Below are positions 25,401-32,000 of a stretch of 32,000 bases of DNA, piece after piece; the first letter of the stretch is position 1, and every line of letters starts with the position of its first letter. The notes under the pieces were generated by a model. That model worked only from the letters and a program-made list of their open reading frames with translations. It was not told the origin of the DNA and did not search any database. The stretch comes from Desulfobulbus propionicus DSM 2032 (lineage in GTDB: Bacteria > Desulfobacterota > Desulfobulbia > Desulfobulbales > Desulfobulbaceae), in NCBI RefSeq assembly GCF_000186885.1, contig NC_014972.1, forward strand, positions 390,001 through 422,000. Reading direction: 5' to 3'. A program made the position numbers and the translations under genes.

Positions 25401-25476
25401 GGGTCGTTAACTCAGTCGGTAGAGTATCTGCCTTTTAAGCAGAGAGTCGCGCGTTCGAGCCGCGCACGACCCACCA
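25401..25476 (+). tRNA. tRNA-Lys (anticodon UUU)
   Basis: The cloverleaf folds by eye. Acceptor GGGTCGT/ACGACCC. Anticodon stem TCTGC/GCAGA with loop CTTTTAA. T-arm GCGCG-TTCGAGC-CGCGC. Encoded CCA end. Confidence 0.95.
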
Positions 25477-25494: not shown

Positions 25495-25572
25495 GTCCCC
25501 ATCGTCTAGCCAGGTCCAGGACACCGGCCTTTCACGCCGGCAACACCGGTTCAAATCCGGTTGGGGACGCCA
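25495..25572 (+). tRNA. tRNA-Glu (anticodon UUC)
   Basis: Acceptor GTCCCCA/TGGGGAC. Anticodon stem CCGGC/GCCGG with loop CTTTCAC. T-arm ACCGG-TTCAAAT-CCGGT. Encoded CCA. Very similar to E. coli tRNA-Glu. Confidence 0.95.
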
Positions 25573-25599
25573 AATAAATCAGCTAGTTATCTAGCTGGG

Positions 25600-26673
25600 T
25601 CATACTCCGAGAACCTGCTGAAGGATTTTTGAAGGATTTTTCTCGGAAGCAGTTAAGCCGGGGAGTGCCGCTAGCACTTCCCGGTTTTCTTTTTTCAGCC
25701 TGTGAATATACCGTTGAGTCGTCGCCAAGCTGGTGTGACGGAGCATGTATTGAATTTCAACCAGGGGCACATTCTGCGCCGCCAGGATTGAAGCAAACAG
25801 ATGCCGGATTCCGTGAAAACCAAACGGCTTTACCCCGGCTTCCTTGCAGACCTTTTTCAGCCAATGCTGGCGGTATTGATAGGCAAGGCTCCGATAGCTG
25901 ACAAATACATGTTCCTTCAAGTCGCTGTTTCCCTTCTTGTGCCGTAACAGCCACTCGGCAAGATCGTCCTTGATGCTCAACCACTGAGAGCGCCATTCTC
26001 CGACCTTATTTTTTCTCCAGCTGAGGCGGATTCTTTTACGAAAAAAATCCACATCGGCCCAGGTAAGACGGAACAGCTCATCCCGACGGGCTCCGGTCTG
26101 CAAGTAGCAATAGAGCATCAGCTTATCTTGGTCCTGGACGAGAGAATGAAAGACCTTCCAAAAATCGTCCAGGGTTGGAACGTATCTTTCGAACCGCTCC
26201 GAGGCGAATTTCTCCACCTTGGAAAACGGGTTTTCGCTGGGGAGTTGAAGAAACTTCACGCCCCAGGACCAAGCCGCCGACAAATTTTTCCTGTCTTTAT
26301 TGGCAGCGTTCCCGGATCGGCTGATGGATTGCCTTTGCAAAGCCTTTTGGACTTGCAGGGCGGTTAACCGATTGGCCGATTCTTTCGGGTTGATGCCAGA
26401 GTAGGCAAAAAATTGACGAAAGGCCATTCGTTTTTCGTCAAACGTCTTGCCGGTAAAATTTTGCTCTGCATGCCTTAGATATTCAGTTGCCCAATCAAGC
26501 AAGCAAACCGAATGGGTCTTTTGTTCGGCTATTTCGTCGGGAAGTTGTTCGGACTCCCACAAAAGAGCCTCTTTCTTGGTCAGAAAGCTTTTCCTCTGCC
26601 TCTTTCCGTTGACTATCCTCTGTCCCGTCCAGGGATATTTGTCTTTGTTGTTGTTGTAGTTTTTGTACGCCAT
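25600..26673 (-). CDS. int: tyrosine recombinase / phage integrase
   Basis: 357 aa. N-terminal arm-type region …RIVNGKRQRKSFLTKKEALLWE…. The catalytic C-terminus …FGFHGIRHLFASIL…LRHTSLATTQRYIH… has the R..H-x-x-R..Y pattern. Confidence 0.93.
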   Translation of the reverse strand: MAYKNYNNNKDKYPWTGQRIVNGKRQRKSFLTKKEALLWESEQLPDEIAEQKTHSVCLLDWATEYLRHAEQNFTGKTFDEKRMAFRQFFAYSGINPKESANRLTALQVQKALQRQSISRSGNAANKDRKNLSAAWSWGVKFLQLPSENPFSKVEKFASERFERYVPTLDDFWKVFHSLVQDQDKLMLYCYLQTGARRDELFRLTWADVDFFRKRIRLSWRKNKVGEWRSQWLSIKDDLAEWLLRHKKGNSDLKEHVFVSYRSLAYQYRQHWLKKVCKEAGVKPFGFHGIRHLFASILAAQNVPLVEIQYMLRHTSLATTQRYIHRLKKENREVLAALPGLTASEKNPSKILQQVLGV

Positions 26674-26821
26674 GATTCATAACCTCATTTCGTGGAAATC
26701 TCCAAGAACGTGGCCCCAAGCGTACTCCCCCGATCTTTTCAAGACCGTAGCGAAGCAAGACACGCTTTTCAACTCGGAAATATTCACAAACCTCTTTCAA
26801 GGTCATCATTTCAGGATACAT
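26495..26821 (-). CDS. xis: excisionase/AlpA-like helix-turn-helix protein
   Basis: MTLKEVCEYFRVEKRVLLRYGLEKIGGVRLGPRSWRFPRNEV is the MerR-superfamily excisionase-type HTH pattern. AGGA lies 8 nt upstream of ATG 26821. The reading frame stays open for 179 nt into the integrase gene. Confidence 0.7.
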   Translation of the reverse strand: MYPEMMTLKEVCEYFRVEKRVLLRYGLEKIGGVRLGPRSWRFPRNEVMNHGVQKLQQQQRQISLDGTEDSQRKEAEEKLSDQERGSFVGVRTTSRRNSRTKDPFGLLA

Positions 26822-26994
26822 TTTTCAAATCCTGGTAAAAATTGCTGCCGAGGATCGACGGCGGATTGTTTCTCTTCACGGACGGCGGCTTTTATGCGGC
26901 GGGCACGTTCGGCAACGGCGGGCATATACTCAGCCCCAAGGGCTTTGTCCCCCATCAGGCCCCTCCGGGGTGTGGTAAAAATCGAATTTTTCAT
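26806..26994 (-). CDS. hypothetical small protein (62 aa) filling the initiator-xis gap
   Basis: Internal ATG 26994 of ORF 26806..27222. MKNSIFTTPRRGLMGDKALGAEYMPAVAERARRIKAAVREEKQ…. It occupies the otherwise non-coding 195-nt gap. Weak RBS. Confidence 0.3.
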   Translation of the reverse strand: MKNSIFTTPRRGLMGDKALGAEYMPAVAERARRIKAAVREEKQSAVDPRQQFLPGFEKCILK

Positions 26995-27016
26995 TTCCTT
27001 GCGTACCTCAATCCGA

Positions 27017-28546
27017 TCAGCCAACACGCGCCAAATAAAAATCATTGCGGCGATCAGGCAATTTCTCGCCATGGGAGAGCTTTTCGAGGCATGACTTGCA
27101 TTGACAATGCGGGCTGCCGGCAATGTAAGAAACAGCCTGGTCATGATCGACAAATTCCGCACAATGAATGCAGACGAAAAAAGAAGTGTCGCCGGGGGGT
27201 GAAGGTGGAGGAATGGCCGCACCTATGACACCTTGTTCGGCGTCGTTCATCGTTGGGCCATGGATCTCGCTGAACCCGTAAGGCCACACCTCGTTAACCT
27301 TTTGTTCCATGCGCACCTGTAAATCAGACTTGCCGGTTTTGGGATCGACCTTTTGAGCCTTGGTACTGAGAATGGAAGAAATTGCTTCCTGGCACCAAAT
27401 GGAAATCACGTCATGATCATTGCCGGTATAACCATTGATGGCAGCGAGGTTGAGCGCGACACCGGCGAGCATATCCTCAAGCTGTCGCTTGTTCTTGGTG
27501 GGAAGACACTTGCGGCGTGATGCCATCTCTTCGCCGCTCCACTGGAGGGATTGAAGGCGTTCCCACCAGGGATTAATCTTTGCCCGGTCCTGGTGACGGT
27601 TGTTGCGGTCGAAAGGTTCAAGACAAAGCCGAGCCCAATCAGTGACGCAATAAGACCAAAGGGAAGAGGCTTTTTTGTGCAAATCCTGCAACGTCTTGAT
27701 ACGGAACTGTTTCAAGACGGTTTTGCGAAGTTGAAATTCGACCCGAGTTACCTGCAAATCTTCATCGTCATCTTGCTCACGTGACCAAACTGAGGCAAAA
27801 AGGGATTTCTTGCCATCGTTCTTGGCGATCTCCAGAACCTTGTCATAAACGCGAAGCATGATATCGCCCTGGCCAACGGAAATACCGGTTTCGGTGACGC
27901 GACCAGTATAGGTGGAGAGGTCCCCCAGGTCGCCCTCTGATTGATTCCAGGTAATACCGGAAAATTTCTGTTGCGAATGGTCATAGTAGGAGAAGAACTT
28001 GTTCGCCCGGGTGATCCAATAATCATACCGTTCAAGGCCGAGTTCGCGGATATCCTGCCCAATAGAATCGGCGCACAAGTGAACCTCAGAAACGGAATTC
28101 TTGTGAACCGTGCCCTGGTACAGATGGATCAGCTTGCAAATCTGGTTGATAACGGTGGTATATCCGGGAGCCCAACAGGACATGGAGCCAATATCAACCC
28201 ACACGTTCGGGGTATCCATGTAATCCCGACGAGTGGAGATGAACACATTGACGTCAGCGCGTGAGATGTGAAAGGCATACCCACCGTTTTTACCGGTGGC
28301 GTGGCAGTTGTAATACTGGTCAAAATCATCACCGAGCTTGATTGGCACCACTTGCCGAATCTCTTGCGCCTTTGCTTTTCCCTGACCCAAGATTTCAAAC
28401 AACCTTTCATCTTTGAACTCGACATAGAAACCGACCTTCAACCGATCAAGCCCCGTGGAGATTTCGACCCCCCTTGTTAATCGGTCTTGGGGAAAAGAAG
28501 GCGAAATTACCGGTGCCTGAGCCTGAGAAAGGAAACCATCGTACAT
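27017..28546 (-). CDS. rolling-circle-type replication initiation protein (Rep_trans-like) with a C-terminal Cys cluster
   Basis: ORF 27017..28714 trimmed to ATG 28546 (AGGAG 8 nt upstream). The ordered motifs SEVHLCADS, MLRVYDKVLEI and VTRVEFQLRK resemble the R/D-x-D, YDK and RxE-x-x-R blocks of replication initiation factor (PF02486-like) proteins. The C-terminus has CIHC…CQCKSC. Confidence 0.6.
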   Translation of the reverse strand: MYDGFLSQAQAPVISPSFPQDRLTRGVEISTGLDRLKVGFYVEFKDERLFEILGQGKAKAQEIRQVVPIKLGDDFDQYYNCHATGKNGGYAFHISRADVNVFISTRRDYMDTPNVWVDIGSMSCWAPGYTTVINQICKLIHLYQGTVHKNSVSEVHLCADSIGQDIRELGLERYDYWITRANKFFSYYDHSQQKFSGITWNQSEGDLGDLSTYTGRVTETGISVGQGDIMLRVYDKVLEIAKNDGKKSLFASVWSREQDDDEDLQVTRVEFQLRKTVLKQFRIKTLQDLHKKASSLWSYCVTDWARLCLEPFDRNNRHQDRAKINPWWERLQSLQWSGEEMASRRKCLPTKNKRQLEDMLAGVALNLAAINGYTGNDHDVISIWCQEAISSILSTKAQKVDPKTGKSDLQVRMEQKVNEVWPYGFSEIHGPTMNDAEQGVIGAAIPPPSPPGDTSFFVCIHCAEFVDHDQAVSYIAGSPHCQCKSCLEKLSHGEKLPDRRNDFYLARVG

Positions 28547-28664
28547 CGCATGAACTCCTGAAAAAAATGAATCCTGATCGTTACGCACTAACGCGCTATC
28601 GCTTGTTGCCTCCTCAAGGTCCCTGCAATCGCCTGGAAACCGCCCCAGGCGATCACAGCGAACC

Positions 28665-28958
28665 TTAAGGAGGGGGGAGATGGACGGGTTTGGGTAGGTC
28701 GTTTTTAATTTCATTTTTTCTTTTACTGCCGTAGCGCTGGAAAGCGCCTTGTCGGCTGAGCCCTAGAGCTAGGCCAATATGTTCCCAGGACCTGCCGAAG
28801 GAACGTTGCCCATCAATGGCAACCTGTACGGCTTGGTCAAACTCGGAACGAAGTTGAATCAGCATTGCAAGTTCGTGCTCATCGGCGGCGGCAACACGGC
28901 GGCCGGCTGCTCGAATCATCCGGGACAGCATCTTTAAGTAATCTGCGGTCTCAACCAT
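28665..28958 (-). CDS. small helix-turn-helix DNA-binding protein (97 aa)
   Basis: ORF 28665..29135 trimmed to ATG 28958 (GAGG 6 nt upstream). …GRSWEHIGLALGLSRQGAFQRYG… is a classic HTH. Confidence 0.6.
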   Translation of the reverse strand: MVETADYLKMLSRMIRAAGRRVAAADEHELAMLIQLRSEFDQAVQVAIDGQRSFGRSWEHIGLALGLSRQGAFQRYGSKRKNEIKNDLPKPVHLPPP

Positions 28959-29023
28959 GAAACGCCTCTTTTGCCGTGAAATGGTGTAAACGATTGGTTG
29001 ACGCTTTTCGGCCGAAGCAAGAT

Positions 29024-29236
29024 TCAAGAGCAATGAGGCCGCCCTGGAGCTGAGGATCCGGACGAAGATGGGCCGAGCTTGGTGGCCTTGCAGATCAGCC
29101 GGGAAGTGCGGATCCGAGATTCGCAGAACAGGCAAAGGCCGAAGTGAGGAAGAGAAGGGTCACAAACGGTTTTACGGCCGCAATCGGCGCAAAGGCAAAC
29201 GACCTGATTTGTCCTGTCGTTATGTGATTGGCTCAT
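29024..29236 (-). CDS. small zinc-ribbon-like protein (70 aa)
   Basis: ATG 29236 with GAGG 8 nt upstream. CLCADCGRKTVC…GLCLFCESRIR gives CxxC…CxxC spacing. Confidence 0.5.
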   Translation of the reverse strand: MSQSHNDRTNQVVCLCADCGRKTVCDPSLPHFGLCLFCESRIRTSRLICKATKLGPSSSGSSAPGRPHCS

Positions 29237-29249
29237 TTGTTTGGCCTCA

Positions 29250-29330
29250 TCAAAGGTTAGCTACGATGACGCCAGCAATAAGCATGGACGCCAAAAACAG
29301 TAAAAACAGGAAACAGGGTCGAGTGCTCAT
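29250..29330 (-). CDS. micro-ORF, 26-aa hydrophobic peptide (not in the supplied ORF track)
   Basis: Hand translation gives MSTRPCFLFLLFLASMLIAGVIVANL. Its ATG (29330-29328) overlaps the TGA of the upstream 88-aa gene (TGATG). Its stop lies 13 nt before the next ATG. Confidence 0.35.
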   Translation of the reverse strand: MSTRPCFLFLLFLASMLIAGVIVANL

Positions 29331-29596
29331 CAGCGTTCACTCCTAATTGCATTGATTGCTCGACCGCAGAGGCGGCCGAAATAAATCCAATTGTAGCTAA
29401 TGCCGTGTTGGTCACAGAGAGGCTTGATGGTATGCAGATCATCGAAGGCCGTGCAGGCGATCATTGTATAAGCATGTTTCTCAAGGCATGATAAGGCGTA
29501 GAGGCTCCACCAAAGCCGATACAAAGCGGTGAAAAAGCAGGCCGCCAGGAAGACGATTGATAACCAAGCGAGGTAGAAGAGAATGGCGGCAATCAT
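29330..29596 (-). CDS. small membrane protein (88 aa, two predicted TM helices, Cys-containing tail)
   Basis: MIAAILFYLAWLSIVFLAACFFTALYRLWWSLYALSCL…. The ATG overlaps the stop of the upstream 39-aa ORF (ATGA). Confidence 0.55.
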   Translation of the reverse strand: MIAAILFYLAWLSIVFLAACFFTALYRLWWSLYALSCLEKHAYTMIACTAFDDLHTIKPLCDQHGISYNWIYFGRLCGRAINAIRSER

Positions 29597-29712
29597 TTTG
29601 AAAAGTACCGTTGAAGTTTGCGGAACAAAGGGCTCAACCTTGGAATGAGGACAAAGACGACAAAAGGAATCAGGAAAAAAGGAATGAGATAAGCGAAAGA
29701 TTTGAAAGTCAT
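29593..29712 (-). CDS. micro-ORF, 39-aa hydrophobic peptide with a basic C-terminus (not in the supplied ORF track)
   Basis: Hand translation gives MTFKSFAYLIPFFLIPFVVFVLIPRLSPLFRKLQRYFSK. Strong RBS: GGAGG 8 nt upstream of ATG 29712. A single TM helix followed by an R/K-rich tail, as in filamentous-phage coat proteins. Confidence 0.45.
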   Translation of the reverse strand: MTFKSFAYLIPFFLIPFVVFVLIPRLSPLFRKLQRYFSK

Positions 29713-29729
29713 GTTTCTTGCCTCCAGTT

Positions 29730-30059
29730 TTAGGAAGTTATCTTAAGGAATCGAAGGATGGGGCCAGACATAAATTTGAGCAGATACAAAGAGATATAAA
29801 ATTGAGTGCACTGGAAAAGAACATCGACCGGGAATAACCAGGTCAACCAACAAATAGCAGTATGCGGTGTAGGGAATTGGTTGACAAGATCGGCCCCGAG
29901 AGACAAAGACGGCATGATTGTCGCCATCATTTCGATGAGGTATGCGAGAAGGGCAAGGATAGCGTTGAGAATGAGGACAAAGGCATCAACGATTACATTG
30001 ATAAGCGTATCGAAGAACGCTTGGAACCAAGAAAGTATTATTTTAATCAAAGAATCCAT
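29730..30059 (-). CDS. polytopic membrane protein (109 aa), pVI-like in size and hydrophobicity
   Basis: MDSLIKIILSWFQAFFDTLINVIVDAFVLILNAILALLAYLIEMMATI…. Starts 11 nt after the stop of the 468-aa gene. M13 pVI is 112 aa and sits in the same position after gIII. Confidence 0.6.
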   Translation of the reverse strand: MDSLIKIILSWFQAFFDTLINVIVDAFVLILNAILALLAYLIEMMATIMPSLSLGADLVNQFPTPHTAICWLTWLFPVDVLFQCTQFYISLYLLKFMSGPILRFLKITS

Positions 30060-30070
30060 TGCATCAGCCC

Positions 30071-31477
30071 TTAGCTGAAAAGAACCATGACCGCTTTACC
30101 AGTGCCGATAATGCACAGTATGGCAAAGAAAAAATTCATTACCTTCACAACTGAATCAAACGGCGCCATATCAAGAACCATTGGATCAGTTATGAAACGG
30201 CTCGACAAATCAACAGTAATTTTTGGAGGATATTCACAACCGCTGCCTTCAACGTAGCCGAGGCAATCAAGAAGCAGGTTGGGGAGTTGATATAGGGCTG
30301 TTTCTTGGAATGCGACTGAGGCATTCAAGATTTGCTCATAATTAATGCATGAAGACAGGCCGTCGGACAGGTCACATGTAGGGGTATACCAAGAGGTTGG
30401 GACTGGATAGTTAGGTTCAGATTCGGGATCAGGTTCCGATTGATTTGCGGCGGATTGAGCAGCGGTAACTGCTGCCTGCAATGCAGCAATTTGGGCAGTA
30501 GCATTATCAGCGTTTGAATTGACAATCTCTTGAGCAACCGTAGCGGCAGCTTGTGCAACTGAAGTTGCATTATCCTTGAGAGCTTGCGCGACTTCGGCAG
30601 CGGTAAGGGTGGGCTCTGTCAGGGTGTCAACGGATGCGCCCGGAACCGCATCGGCAATTTTCTTTTTCGCGTCGGGCAAATCTTTAATGGCTTGCTGTAA
30701 ATCCGAAGCAACTTCAGGCGCCGGGCTTACAAGACCATCGGCCAAGCCGGGATAGCTGACGCCGGGTGATGGTTTGTATGTCGGTTCCTTTGTCTCAAGA
30801 CTCCCTTTCGCTATCCAAACTCTATAGGTGGTAGCTCCGTAGGAATTGACGGAAGTATCATTCAAATCGAGAAAAACAGCCTGAGAGGGAGTTGCATAGA
30901 TAAGCGTAGAATAAACAGATTTAGGGTATGTGGACCCGTTGTTGTTGAAATAAGTGAGAGTCGTGTAATTGGCAGCGTATGGAGCTTGTGTGATCTCAAA
31001 AAATGTACCGTCCGTAAGTTCGAGAACAACACCGACAAAAAAATCTGATGGATTCACGGAGACAGGCAAAGAGTTAGCTTCTATCAAGTTCTTGAGGCTA
31101 GTGTATGCACCGGATGCGGAGGTTCTAACCTGATCTACAATATCAGCAATTGACGCACCCACAGCGGCAGCCTTAGCCGCATAGTAATTTTGAGCCGTGG
31201 TAAGAGATTGAGGGGTGAAAAGGGCACCAACGGCCTGAGCAAGATAAGAGGGCTGGAACACAGCGTCGGCCGCCGTGGCGACGGCACCGGAAGCCGTCTT
31301 GACATATTGGGGTATTTGCCCGGTTTGGGCGTAATAGGTTCCGGCGGAAGTTGCCGCCATGGATGCACCAATGGCAGCGGCCGCTATGAGGGCAACGGGA
31401 ACGGCAGAGTGACTTTGCGGCGGTTGCGCAAAGGTGCAGCAGTAGAAAAAGACGGTGAGCAGGGCGATCCGTTTCAT
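30071..31477 (-). CDS. secreted protein (468 aa) with signal peptide, Ala/Thr/Gln-rich linker, Cys-containing C-terminal domain and C-terminal membrane anchor (pIII-like architecture)
   Basis: Signal peptide MKRIALLTVFFYCCTFAQPPQSHSA. Low-complexity region …ATSVAQAAATVAQEIVNSNADNATAQIAALQAAVTAAQSAANQSEPDPESEP…. C-terminal hydrophobic anchor …VVKVMNFFFAILCIIGTGKAVMVLFS. Confidence 0.75.
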   Translation of the reverse strand: MKRIALLTVFFYCCTFAQPPQSHSAVPVALIAAAAIGASMAATSAGTYYAQTGQIPQYVKTASGAVATAADAVFQPSYLAQAVGALFTPQSLTTAQNYYAAKAAAVGASIADIVDQVRTSASGAYTSLKNLIEANSLPVSVNPSDFFVGVVLELTDGTFFEITQAPYAANYTTLTYFNNNGSTYPKSVYSTLIYATPSQAVFLDLNDTSVNSYGATTYRVWIAKGSLETKEPTYKPSPGVSYPGLADGLVSPAPEVASDLQQAIKDLPDAKKKIADAVPGASVDTLTEPTLTAAEVAQALKDNATSVAQAAATVAQEIVNSNADNATAQIAALQAAVTAAQSAANQSEPDPESEPNYPVPTSWYTPTCDLSDGLSSCINYEQILNASVAFQETALYQLPNLLLDCLGYVEGSGCEYPPKITVDLSSRFITDPMVLDMAPFDSVVKVMNFFFAILCIIGTGKAVMVLFS

Positions 31478-31872
31478 CTTTTAGCCCCCTTGACCAGCTG
31501 CCCGCCGGTGAGATCGTCGCCGCACTGACAGCGGAAATGCTCGTCAAAGGGTTGGAAGTCCTGACCGATGCAGACGAAGCGGAACATATCGCCGCGCTCC
31601 GCACACGACCGCTCACAGATAGCGAGATATTCCCGGCAGGGCTTGGCCTGCTTGATCCGCATCGAGGGGCTGGTTGTGGTGGTGTAGGGAAACCCGCCGC
31701 CAAAGGTGCCGGTATTGCCCGGCGTGTCCTGAGCAGGGTTGGAGGCGGACGCCGAGCTGGATTGCGGGGTAGAAGGGGTCCGAGAGTAGGTGACGCCGCC
31801 GTTAGCGCTGTTGAGCCCAAAGCCGAAGATGTTCAGGAAAGCAAGACAAAGAAGAAAAAAGATATTAGGCAT
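31474..31872 (-). CDS. secreted Cys-rich protein (about 132 aa)
   Basis: The ORF track starts at GTG 31881. ATG 31872 is preferred (AGGTG 6 nt upstream). Signal peptide MPNIFFLLCLAFLNIFGFGLNSANG, then a Ser/Thr/Pro/Gly linker, then a six-Cys C-terminal domain. The stop overlaps the next ATG (ATGA). Confidence 0.65.
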   Translation of the reverse strand: MPNIFFLLCLAFLNIFGFGLNSANGGVTYSRTPSTPQSSSASASNPAQDTPGNTGTFGGGFPYTTTTSPSMRIKQAKPCREYLAICERSCAERGDMFRFVCIGQDFQPFDEHFRCQCGDDLTGGQLVKGAKR

Positions 31873-32000
31873 GGCAGGCACCTGGATTAATGATTTCTCG
31901 GTAATCGTGAATAAAGGAGGATTCGGTTATCGCCTGATGTTTTTCCCTCAGTTCCTGAACGGCGGTCCTGTAATATATTTGCGGATCAAGGCCGAGGGGT
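31865..32000 (-). CDS. 3' end of an upstream gene that runs off the window
   Basis: Hand translation of the minus frame from 31999 gives 44 open codons (…LGLDPQIYYRTAVQELREKHQAITESSFIHDYREIINPGACHA). It ends at TAA 31867-31865, overlapping the next start (ATGCCTAA). Function unknown. Confidence 0.35.
   Translation of the reverse strand, partial: PLGLDPQIYYRTAVQELREKHQAITESSFIHDYREIINPGACHA

Follow-up and report, generated by a model that had tools for sequence, protein, structure and literature searches.

A low-G+C region beside tRNA-Glu

The locus raises the question of what kind of element borders tRNA-Glu at one end of the window, the 32,000-nt stretch of Desulfobulbus propionicus DSM 2032 that was analysed. 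The original prediction, made from the letters and their open reading frames (ORFs), described positions 25573 to 32000 as a filamentous-prophage-like element in a sulfate reducer, from which the pI/Zot morphogenesis ATPase was missing. We find that this region is most probably the integrase-proximal 6.4 kb of an integrated inovirus of about 10.6 kb. The proposal of a filamentous-prophage-like element beside tRNA-Glu was supported by a right-hand attachment site (attR), by the Rep_trans fold predicted for its initiator, by the mobility of its gene cassette, and by the pI/Zot ATPase itself.

ARAGORN located tRNA-Lys (25401-25476) and tRNA-Glu(ttc) (25495-25572) on the plus strand, in agreement with the predicted tRNA-Glu end at 25572. 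Rfam and consensus scans found only these two tRNAs. The G+C content was 0.604 over positions 1-25400, where 1-kb windows had a mean of 0.606, a standard deviation of 0.020 and a minimum of 0.566, and it fell to 0.502 over 25573-32000. The change from 0.60 to 0.50 past tRNA-Glu, previously judged by eye, is genuine and well beyond host variation. All 13 minus-strand ORFs listed in the original prediction were present, and their string reached the window edge at 32000. The membrane topologies given for them agreed with our Kyte-Doolittle hydropathy scan, a crude method on which all topologies described here are based. One small ORF stood only in part: an ORF does lie between the rep and xis genes, but its length of 62 amino acids (aa) is uncertain, the gene callers giving 49, 79 or 88 aa.

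The full extent of the element was obtained from public contigs. The exact sequence of the 468-aa protein encoded in the region was found in 15 of them, and the six that were fetched (L001-L006), metagenome contigs from six different samples, were 99-100% identical to the window apart from a 265-bp indel. Contig L002, an 87.6-kb entry in the European Nucleotide Archive, was 99.9% identical to the window including the host flank, and ran past position 32000. When the window was compared with L002 by BLAST, the tRNA-Glu 3' end was found again at a distance of 10.3 kb. The two copies agree exactly over 48 nt (L002 5329-5376 and 15640-15687; window 25525-25572), and the next 20 nt (25573-25592) are imperfectly repeated as well; the attR for which the original prediction proposed to look therefore lies beyond the window. 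Thus the element shows both marks of integration by a tyrosine recombinase at a tRNA site: the integrase is encoded beside the tRNA gene, and the tRNA 3' end recurs as a direct repeat at the opposite boundary. The length of the element is 10,311 bp in L002, compared with 10,576 bp for the variant of the window; it has a G+C content of 0.48 and contains about 25 genes, most of them without a Pfam or PHROG match. In the direction of transcription, the order is a HigB/HigA pair, a DUF4124 gene, a cI-like gene, small ORFs, a gene for a protein with a predicted oligonucleotide/oligosaccharide-binding (OB) fold, a coat-like set and pI, followed by genes for the 132-, 468-, 109-, 39-, 88- and 26-aa products, a zinc ribbon, a helix-turn-helix (HTH) protein, Rep, the small ORF, an excisionase-like protein (Xis) and the integrase (Int).

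The morphogenesis ATPase lies across the window edge

The absence of the ATPase was an artefact of the window edge. In L002, a 282-aa ORF is located directly upstream of the 132-aa gene. It starts MAVIEMFCGAMGNGKS, which holds a Walker A motif (GAMGNGKS), and its end, ...YREIINPGACHA, consists of the residues of the partial ORF at window positions 31865-32000. Since this partial ORF is the C-terminus of a pI/Zot ATPase, the anomaly disappears. The original prediction had seen no Walker A motif in ORFs of 60 aa or more between 25.6 and 32.0 kb, and every complete ORF inside the window indeed lacks one; the first explanation offered, a non-canonical gene order with the ATPase past 32000, was borne out by the 282-aa ORF. 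The other two explanations of the gap, a satellite or defective form and a different rolling-circle element, gained no evidence in their favour.

The suggested search of the whole element with PF05707 (Zot) gave a match above the cut-off (30.9 bits against 20.3), and the ATPase also matched phrog_1675, 'morphogenesis (protein I of M13)', at 1.8e-12. In tblastn, its residues 1-228 aligned with gene I of Vibrio phages fs2 and VFJ, of IKe, of Erwinia phages and of the M13 group at 22-27% identity. Inoviruses have been characterised by a pI-like ATPase as their only conserved marker gene, by short structural proteins with a single transmembrane (TM) segment, and by a small genome whose short genes mostly are uncharacterised or recur in other inoviruses (Roux et al. 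2019, PMC6813254). The element combines a pI-like morphogenesis ATPase, encoded mostly beyond the window, with putative structural proteins of 30-90 aa having a single predicted TM segment, and with a genome of 10.3-10.6 kb made of short, mostly uncharacterised genes. One hydrophobic segment was seen in each of the 49-, 40-, 50-, 39-, 60- and 88-aa proteins, and a weaker one in the 49-aa paralogue of the 50-aa protein.

The ATPase departs from the canonical pI architecture. No segment of it reached a hydropathy of 1.5, the maximal 19-residue value being 1.1, whereas a clear hydrophobic helix follows the ATPase domain in 25 of the 30 Zot homologues of at least 240 aa from the fetched loci, mostly at about 200-260. 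The C-terminal 55 residues are conserved in its clade yet hydrophilic. This clade without a TM helix comprises 22 clusters, nearly all from Desulfobulbus, which keep the full length of 266-287 aa, tail included, down to 40% identity. Such conservation indicates a protein that would be functional and under purifying selection rather than in decay. A profile search of 1.84 billion representatives returned 343 relatives of the ATPase below 1e-10, many of them 250-300 aa long; judged from these sequences, short pI-like ATPases without the helix seem to be common in uncultivated diversity. Some distant short relatives show what look like TM segments at about 170-190; these were unconvincing as helices, as in the alignment they fall on a Pro-rich stretch that is conserved within the ATPase domain.

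We searched the element for a separate homologue of the pI tail with a hidden Markov model (HMM) of pI tails, and found none. The idea that the 132-aa protein, which begins at the place expected for the membrane helix of pI, is the missing tail was weakened by relatives with a helix-bearing pI, which keep this gene before the 468-aa gene and away from pI; the helix-less pI of locus L042 has no 132-aa-like neighbour. The usual order in relatives is the gene for the 132-aa protein (p132), that for the 468-aa protein (p468), a pVI-like gene and then Zot, as in the classical arrangement pIII-pVI-pI. Zot is shifted ahead of p132 in the D. propionicus clade (L002, L032, L060-L063). In the element, the start of the 132-aa gene overlaps the ATPase stop. 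Tentatively, and with the odds rather against it, the Desulfobulbus clade and the larger set of 250-300-aa Zot proteins might build filaments with a soluble pI that has neither helix nor periplasmic domain, as a split pI/pXI machine recruited by a separate small membrane protein. Candidates for such a recruiter are the 88-, 39- and 109-aa products and the 132-aa protein. To our knowledge, no characterised filamentous phage has a split pI/pXI machine.

The initiator has a predicted Rep_trans fold

The sequence of Rep is identical to Despr_0400 of D. propionicus DSM 2032. Direct scans against Pfam and PHROGs (hmmscan) and against PDB sequences (phmmer) gave no match, and PF02486 (Rep_trans) was not matched even at E values of 0.1 to 1. 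Among 33 homologues of Rep, six matched PF02486, the best at 4.1e-5; a profile of the 33 against PDB sequences gave a single match, which was spurious. An AlphaFold model based on the 33-member alignment had a predicted local distance difference test (pLDDT) score of 78, with values above 90 for most positions in the ranges 30-200 and 230-420. With this model, Foldseek retrieved RepSTK1 (4CIJ, E 4e-10, probability 1.00) and RepDE (4CWC, 3.4e-8), which are the only solved Rep_trans structures, followed by TATA-box-binding proteins.

The catalytic residues reported for RepDE are R189-x-Y191-x-K193, R212-x-E214, D46 and R140-x-D142-x-A144-x-D146, and the family also takes in initiators from phages of Gram-negative bacteria (Carr et al., PMC4797284). 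When Rep and RepDE were related by motif pattern, as opposed to residue-level structural superposition, LRVYDK corresponded to R232-x-Y234-x-K236 and RVEFQLRK to R268-x-E270, while D34 was found in GLDRL. Y234, K236, R268 and E270 are present in all 33 members, R232 and D34 in 32, and D160 of the SEVHLCADS motif forms an invariant or near-invariant column. The three initiator motifs singled out in the original prediction are therefore present and fall in conserved columns. The test of family membership proposed with them came out divided: no direct Pfam match was obtained, and the predicted fold and the homologues place Rep firmly among the Rep_trans rolling-circle initiators, in line with the active-site residues as paired by motif.

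The metal site appears altered. RepDE binds metal through D46, D142 and E214; Rep has D34 and E270, but carries His156 at the equivalent of D142 in 29 of the 33 members. The strand reads E154-x-H156-x-C158-x-D160 in these 29 and R-x-D-x-A-x-D in the other four, which are the most distant. In the alignment this is a coordinated three-residue change, in which the predicted metal-binding Asp is replaced by His. It is probably because of this change that the Pfam model misses Rep, and the substitution may alter the metal preference.

A 565-aa maximal ORF for the initiator was rejected as over-extended, as the ATG at 28546 is preceded by AGGAG 8 nt upstream and the extension crosses the hairpin that lies in front of rep (Table 1). 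Relatives have inverted repeats of 13-17 nt at the same location upstream of rep, with differing sequences. A site that is kept while its sequence varies would fit an origin specific to each initiator, and we infer that the hairpin could be the double-strand origin, with the nick site, or else have a regulatory role.

Relatives and mobility of the element

A total of 100 Rep homologues were found, and the named ones belong almost all to Desulfobulbales (Desulfopila, Desulfofustis, Desulfolithobacter, Candidatus Electrothrix, Candidatus Electronema, Thiovibrio and Desulforhopalus). Scanning one genome per species yielded 53 loci with a Rep relative, mostly in Desulfobulbales. Iterated HMM searches revealed a recurring layout, which consists of a reversed cI-like gene, 6-8 kb of short forward genes including a Zot-like ATPase, and then Rep, Xis and Int. 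Homologues of Xis sit between Rep and Int in 26 related loci. A tRNA gene (Glu-ttc, Glu-ctc or Pro) lies within about 80 bp of the integrase in 14 of 23 scanned loci; in several others the nearest tRNA was kilobases off, or none was found. The tRNA-Lys/tRNA-Glu(ttc) site is also occupied by family members in L024 and L044. Two related elements stand in tandem on contig JBFXII010000005.1 (L036/L038). In L050, a remnant integrase fragment with a partial tRNA-Glu (1328-1630) is located upstream of a full element. Repeated integration at the same site seems to be common.

In IMG/VR, four relatives have a Zot that is 79-84% identical to that of the element. Two of these, of 11,063 and 10,171 bp, have a terminal repeat of 49 bp; when they are aligned with L002, their ends fall at its att cores (L060 at both ends, L062 at the right end), and they appear to be prophages trimmed from att to att. 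For the structural genes and Int, identity to the element is 65-92% in L032, L060 and L062, in contrast to only 31-32% for Rep, which points to exchange of the replication module. The possibility that the membrane cassette consists of conserved chromosomal genes, named in the original prediction as a ground for refutation, was not borne out: in other genomes the cassette is found in att-bounded units of about 10 kb that also carry Rep, Xis and Int.

Cable-bacterium genomes hold Rep homologues of 42-49% identity (Electronema L012 and L018; Electrothrix P0032). In both Candidatus Electronema loci an integrase follows Rep, and L012 also has a Zot-like ATPase with a TM helix upstream and tRNA-Asp/Val downstream; in Candidatus Electrothrix, the Rep homologue alone was seen.

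Structural candidates and other features

The features of the element are collected in Table 1.

Table 1. Features of the integrated element, from the tRNA-proximal end. Positions refer to the window unless L002 is named.
Feature	Position	Strand	Remarks
att core, integrase end	25525..25572	+	3' 48 nt of tRNA-Glu(ttc), repeated exactly at far end of element
Tyrosine integrase, 357 aa	25600..26673	-	PF00589 5.1e-24; phrog_1 1.4e-49
Excisionase-like HTH protein, 108 aa	26495..26821	-	HTH_17 2.5e-4 (below Pfam cut-off); phrog_10045 2.2e-6; phrog_66 excisionase 6e-4
Small uncertain ORF between rep and xis	26806..27016 (within 26806-27222)	-	No family match
Rolling-circle initiator Rep, 509 aa	27017..28546	-	Divergent Rep_trans domain, predicted catalytic Tyr234; C-terminal Cys-rich, zinc-ribbon-like tail
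Hairpin, stem about 27 bp	28609..28673	-	Between HTH gene and rep start; DNA fold z = -4.2, 0/200 shuffles as stable
HTH DNA-binding protein, 97 aa	28665..28958	-	phrog_686 5.9e-8
CxxC...CxxC zinc ribbon, 70 aa	29024..29236	-	Kept upstream of rep in several relatives
Hydrophobic ORF, 26 aa	29250..29330	-	Putative gene; too short for homology tests
Membrane protein, 88 aa	29330..29596	-	N-terminal TM helix, then a tail of about 55 aa with Cys; homologue in L032 at 65% identity
Single-TM protein, 39 aa	29593..29712	-	N-terminal helix; 65-82% in L032, L060, L062
Polytopic membrane protein, 109 aa	29730..30059	-	Hydrophobic over 12-52 and beyond; no family match
468-aa protein	30071..31477	-	Signal peptide, Ala/Gln-rich linker, C-terminal anchor 438-468
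Secreted or anchored protein, 132/135 aa	31474..31881	-	C-terminal domain with six Cys
pI/Zot ATPase, 3' end (last 44 codons and stop)	31865..32000	-	Remainder beyond window edge
Four coat-like membrane proteins, 49, 40, 49 and 50 aa	Beyond window, upstream of pI
89-aa protein (p89)	Beyond window		AlphaFold pLDDT 85, five-stranded barrel
67-, 60- (TM) and 95-aa (zinc ribbon) proteins	Beyond window, before 89-aa gene
Palindrome ATAAGAAA(T/A)CTTATA, two copies 60 bp apart	L002 7087-7101 and 7147-7161		Divergent region between cI-like gene and forward operon
cI-like repressor, 135 aa	Beyond window	Opposite strand	Phage_CI_repr 6e-4; phrog_4 2.2e-6
DUF4124 membrane protein, 147 aa	Beyond window	Opposite strand
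HigB-like (Gp49) / HigA-like (HTH_37) pair	Beyond window		Precomputed Pfam matches

Assignments to pIII, pVI and coat were made from size, gene order and topology. The 468-aa protein is a candidate for a pIII-like adsorption protein. Compared with L032, L060 and L062, only its last 105-200 residues are conserved. This is what an adsorption protein would show if its virion-anchoring end stayed constant and its receptor-binding end varied. In relatives, the 132-aa gene always has the 468-aa gene as its partner, and the two overlap. The size, position and topology of the 109-aa protein make it a candidate for a pVI-like protein.

The 39-, 88- and 26-aa proteins inside the window are probably not the coat; better candidates are encoded upstream of the ATPase, beyond the window. 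The last two of the four coat-like proteins there (49 and 50 aa) are paralogues, acidic at the N-terminus and basic at the C-terminus. Their genes are adjacent (L002 8461-8610 and 8613-8765), and each retrieves the other in HMM iteration; like coats of the Pf3 type, both proteins lack a cleavable signal peptide. The model of p89 matched OB folds, namely those of uS12, the mitochondrial single-stranded DNA (ssDNA)-binding protein Rim1, Teb1, PriB and RPA. A p89 profile found no match among PDB sequences, and the 50 best structure matches did not include gene V protein.

The two palindromes between the cI-like gene and the forward operon look like operators, judging from their sequence and position. 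In its 3' part, the Xis-like ORF shares 179 nt (26495-26673) with the start of the integrase gene, in another frame; only about its first 50 residues match HTH models, and its true stop and functional length are uncertain. Homologues of the 97-aa HTH protein occur elsewhere in relatives, between Rep and Xis (L033, L050) or before Zot (L044). In the element, 265 bp (28717-28981) that make up most of the 97-aa HTH gene are present in the window and absent from all six contigs L001-L006. The indel is clean, with junction microhomology of at most 1-2 nt.

Contig L001, a JGI SCADC contig, was considered as the same prophage in two host lineages. This was rejected, as its left flank is also 98.5% identical and its far right flank 80%. 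Compared with L002, identity is 98.5% through the left flank, the element and RdgC, and 80% in TPR, GatB and RadC beyond L002 16650. L001 represents either a recombinant host or a mosaic or chimeric contig assembly.

Weighing an inovirus against other explanations

Several results weigh against an integrated inovirus. The element encodes no secretin, neither as a Pfam match nor as an ORF of fitting kind; the ATPase lacks the TM helix found in characterised pI proteins; and besides the Pfam negative for Rep, the pIII, pVI and coat candidates gave no family match in Pfam and PHROG scans. The circular junction attP expected after excision, AGCTAACTAGCTGAAATATA followed by the 48-nt core and CAAAACAGCACGC..., was not found by exact-pattern search of IMG/VR and JGI metagenome contigs, nor was the empty attB site in JGI metagenome contigs. 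L004 (10,322 bp), considered as an excised circle, was uninformative: by our own arithmetic, it ends about 30 nt inside each att copy, as a k=31 assembly break at a 48-nt repeat would give. Some of these results could be taken to mean a defective or satellite filamentous element, which has lost the membrane part of pI and the secretin and is either dead or dependent on a helper inovirus. It would account for a pI with neither TM helix nor periplasmic domain and without a homologue of its tail elsewhere in the element, for the failure to detect attP and the empty site in contigs, and for the polymorphic HTH gene with its 265-bp indel. Purifying selection, as suggested by the full-length ATPase in 22 clusters down to 40% identity, argues against such decay, and so do the hundreds of short ATPase relatives and the remaining modules, which are intact, with no frameshifts or stops. 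Many inoviruses, CTXphi and Pf among them, also have no secretin of their own and use that of the host. Relatives at different tRNA sites and with differing Rep modules further point to ongoing mobility, and we regard a defective or satellite form as unlikely.

A non-viral rolling-circle integrative element, in which the Zot-like ATPase and the membrane cassette serve DNA export or another membrane role, is very improbable. In its favour, the structural assignments are without a family match, and Rep_trans proteins are also described as relaxases or replicases of integrative and conjugative elements and plasmids (PMC4797284; PMC9371924, PMC6499999). However, the named proteins that the ATPase matches best are gene I products of phages, and the element has no conjugation genes, as no coupling protein, VirB4 or MOB relaxase was found in it. 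Its size of about 10 kb, short genes, single-TM proteins of 40-50 aa and OB fold agree with the features described for inoviruses (PMC6813254), and its close relatives are filed as viral genomes in IMG/VR.

A possible life cycle

For an inovirus, the gene content suggests the following cycle. The cI-like repressor would silence the long operon, probably at the two palindromes of the divergent promoter region. Upon induction, Xis and Int would excise a circle at the att cores. Rep would then use Tyr234 and a divalent metal to nick the double-strand origin, possibly the hairpin at 28609-28673, and plus-strand ssDNA would be spun off and covered by the 89-aa OB-fold protein. At the inner membrane, the pI ATPase would exchange the OB-fold protein for the paralogous 49- and 50-aa major-coat-like proteins, and the 468- and 109-aa proteins would cap the filament. 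Because pI has no membrane helix, it would have to be tethered at the membrane by another protein, and because the element encodes no secretin, the filament would leave through a secretin of the host.

Comparison with known systems

The closest architecture is that of Pf4 and Pf5 of Pseudomonas aeruginosa. These prophages integrate at tRNA genes, have the initiator and then the integrase at the tRNA-proximal end, and carry a repressor, an excisionase and, beside the integration module, a toxin-antitoxin pair. They have no secretin of their own, and their order is ssDNA-binding protein, coat, adsorption protein and pVI-like protein, with pI after the adsorption and pVI genes. The element shares these features except for the position of pI, which lies ahead of the adsorption and pVI genes, and differs further in the helix-less pI, in the 132-aa Cys-rich secreted protein encoded before the adsorption gene, and in the two tandem coat-like paralogues. 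In an INPHARED search, no protein similarity to Pf was found beyond generic gene I matches.

By sequence, the closest relatives are the IMG/VR uncultivated virus genomes 3300027373_000059 and 3300005326_000241. They have the same order of helix-less Zot, p132, p468 and p109, carry the 49-bp terminal repeat, and are 79-84% identical in Zot and 78-80% in Int. In contrast, their Rep is 32% identical, and the 88- and 97-aa genes are absent or diverged. With Ff (M13/f1/fd), IKe, fs2 and VFJ, the element shares a homologous pI ATPase domain, small coats and pIII/pVI-like caps. Apart from some Vibrio phages, these phages are non-integrative, and they have a pI with both a TM helix and a periplasmic domain; in Ff phages the secretin is phage-encoded, and the initiator is gpII, an HUH-type protein. 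RepD and RepC of pT181-family plasmids and RepSTK1 have the fold predicted for Rep and, by motif pattern, its R-x-Y-x-K and R-x-E motifs and first-strand Asp; Rep differs from them in being about twice as long, in its Cys-rich tail, and in the change of Asp to His.

Literature searches found no paper on an inovirus in Desulfobulbaceae or its order, and inoviruses are unmentioned in a survey of prophages in sulfate reducers (PMC8146710). The supplementary reference list of Roux et al. 2019 includes the genome paper of D. propionicus 1pr3, which suggests that this genome was among those mined; it is no proof that the prophage was detected.

Significance

The element is uncharacterised, and it shows three mild departures, in the position of pI, in the helix-less pI and in the metal site of Rep. 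These deserve a line in a comparative study, and would not surprise a specialist. What the locus offers is a complete-looking filamentous prophage in the culturable type strain of a model sulfate reducer, belonging to a family that spans Desulfobulbales, including the cable-bacterium genus Candidatus Electronema. Its helix-less pI provides a natural test for which parts of the assembly motor are dispensable. If the prophage is inducible, it would be a useful genetic tool and a handle on the phage-host biology of anoxic sediments.

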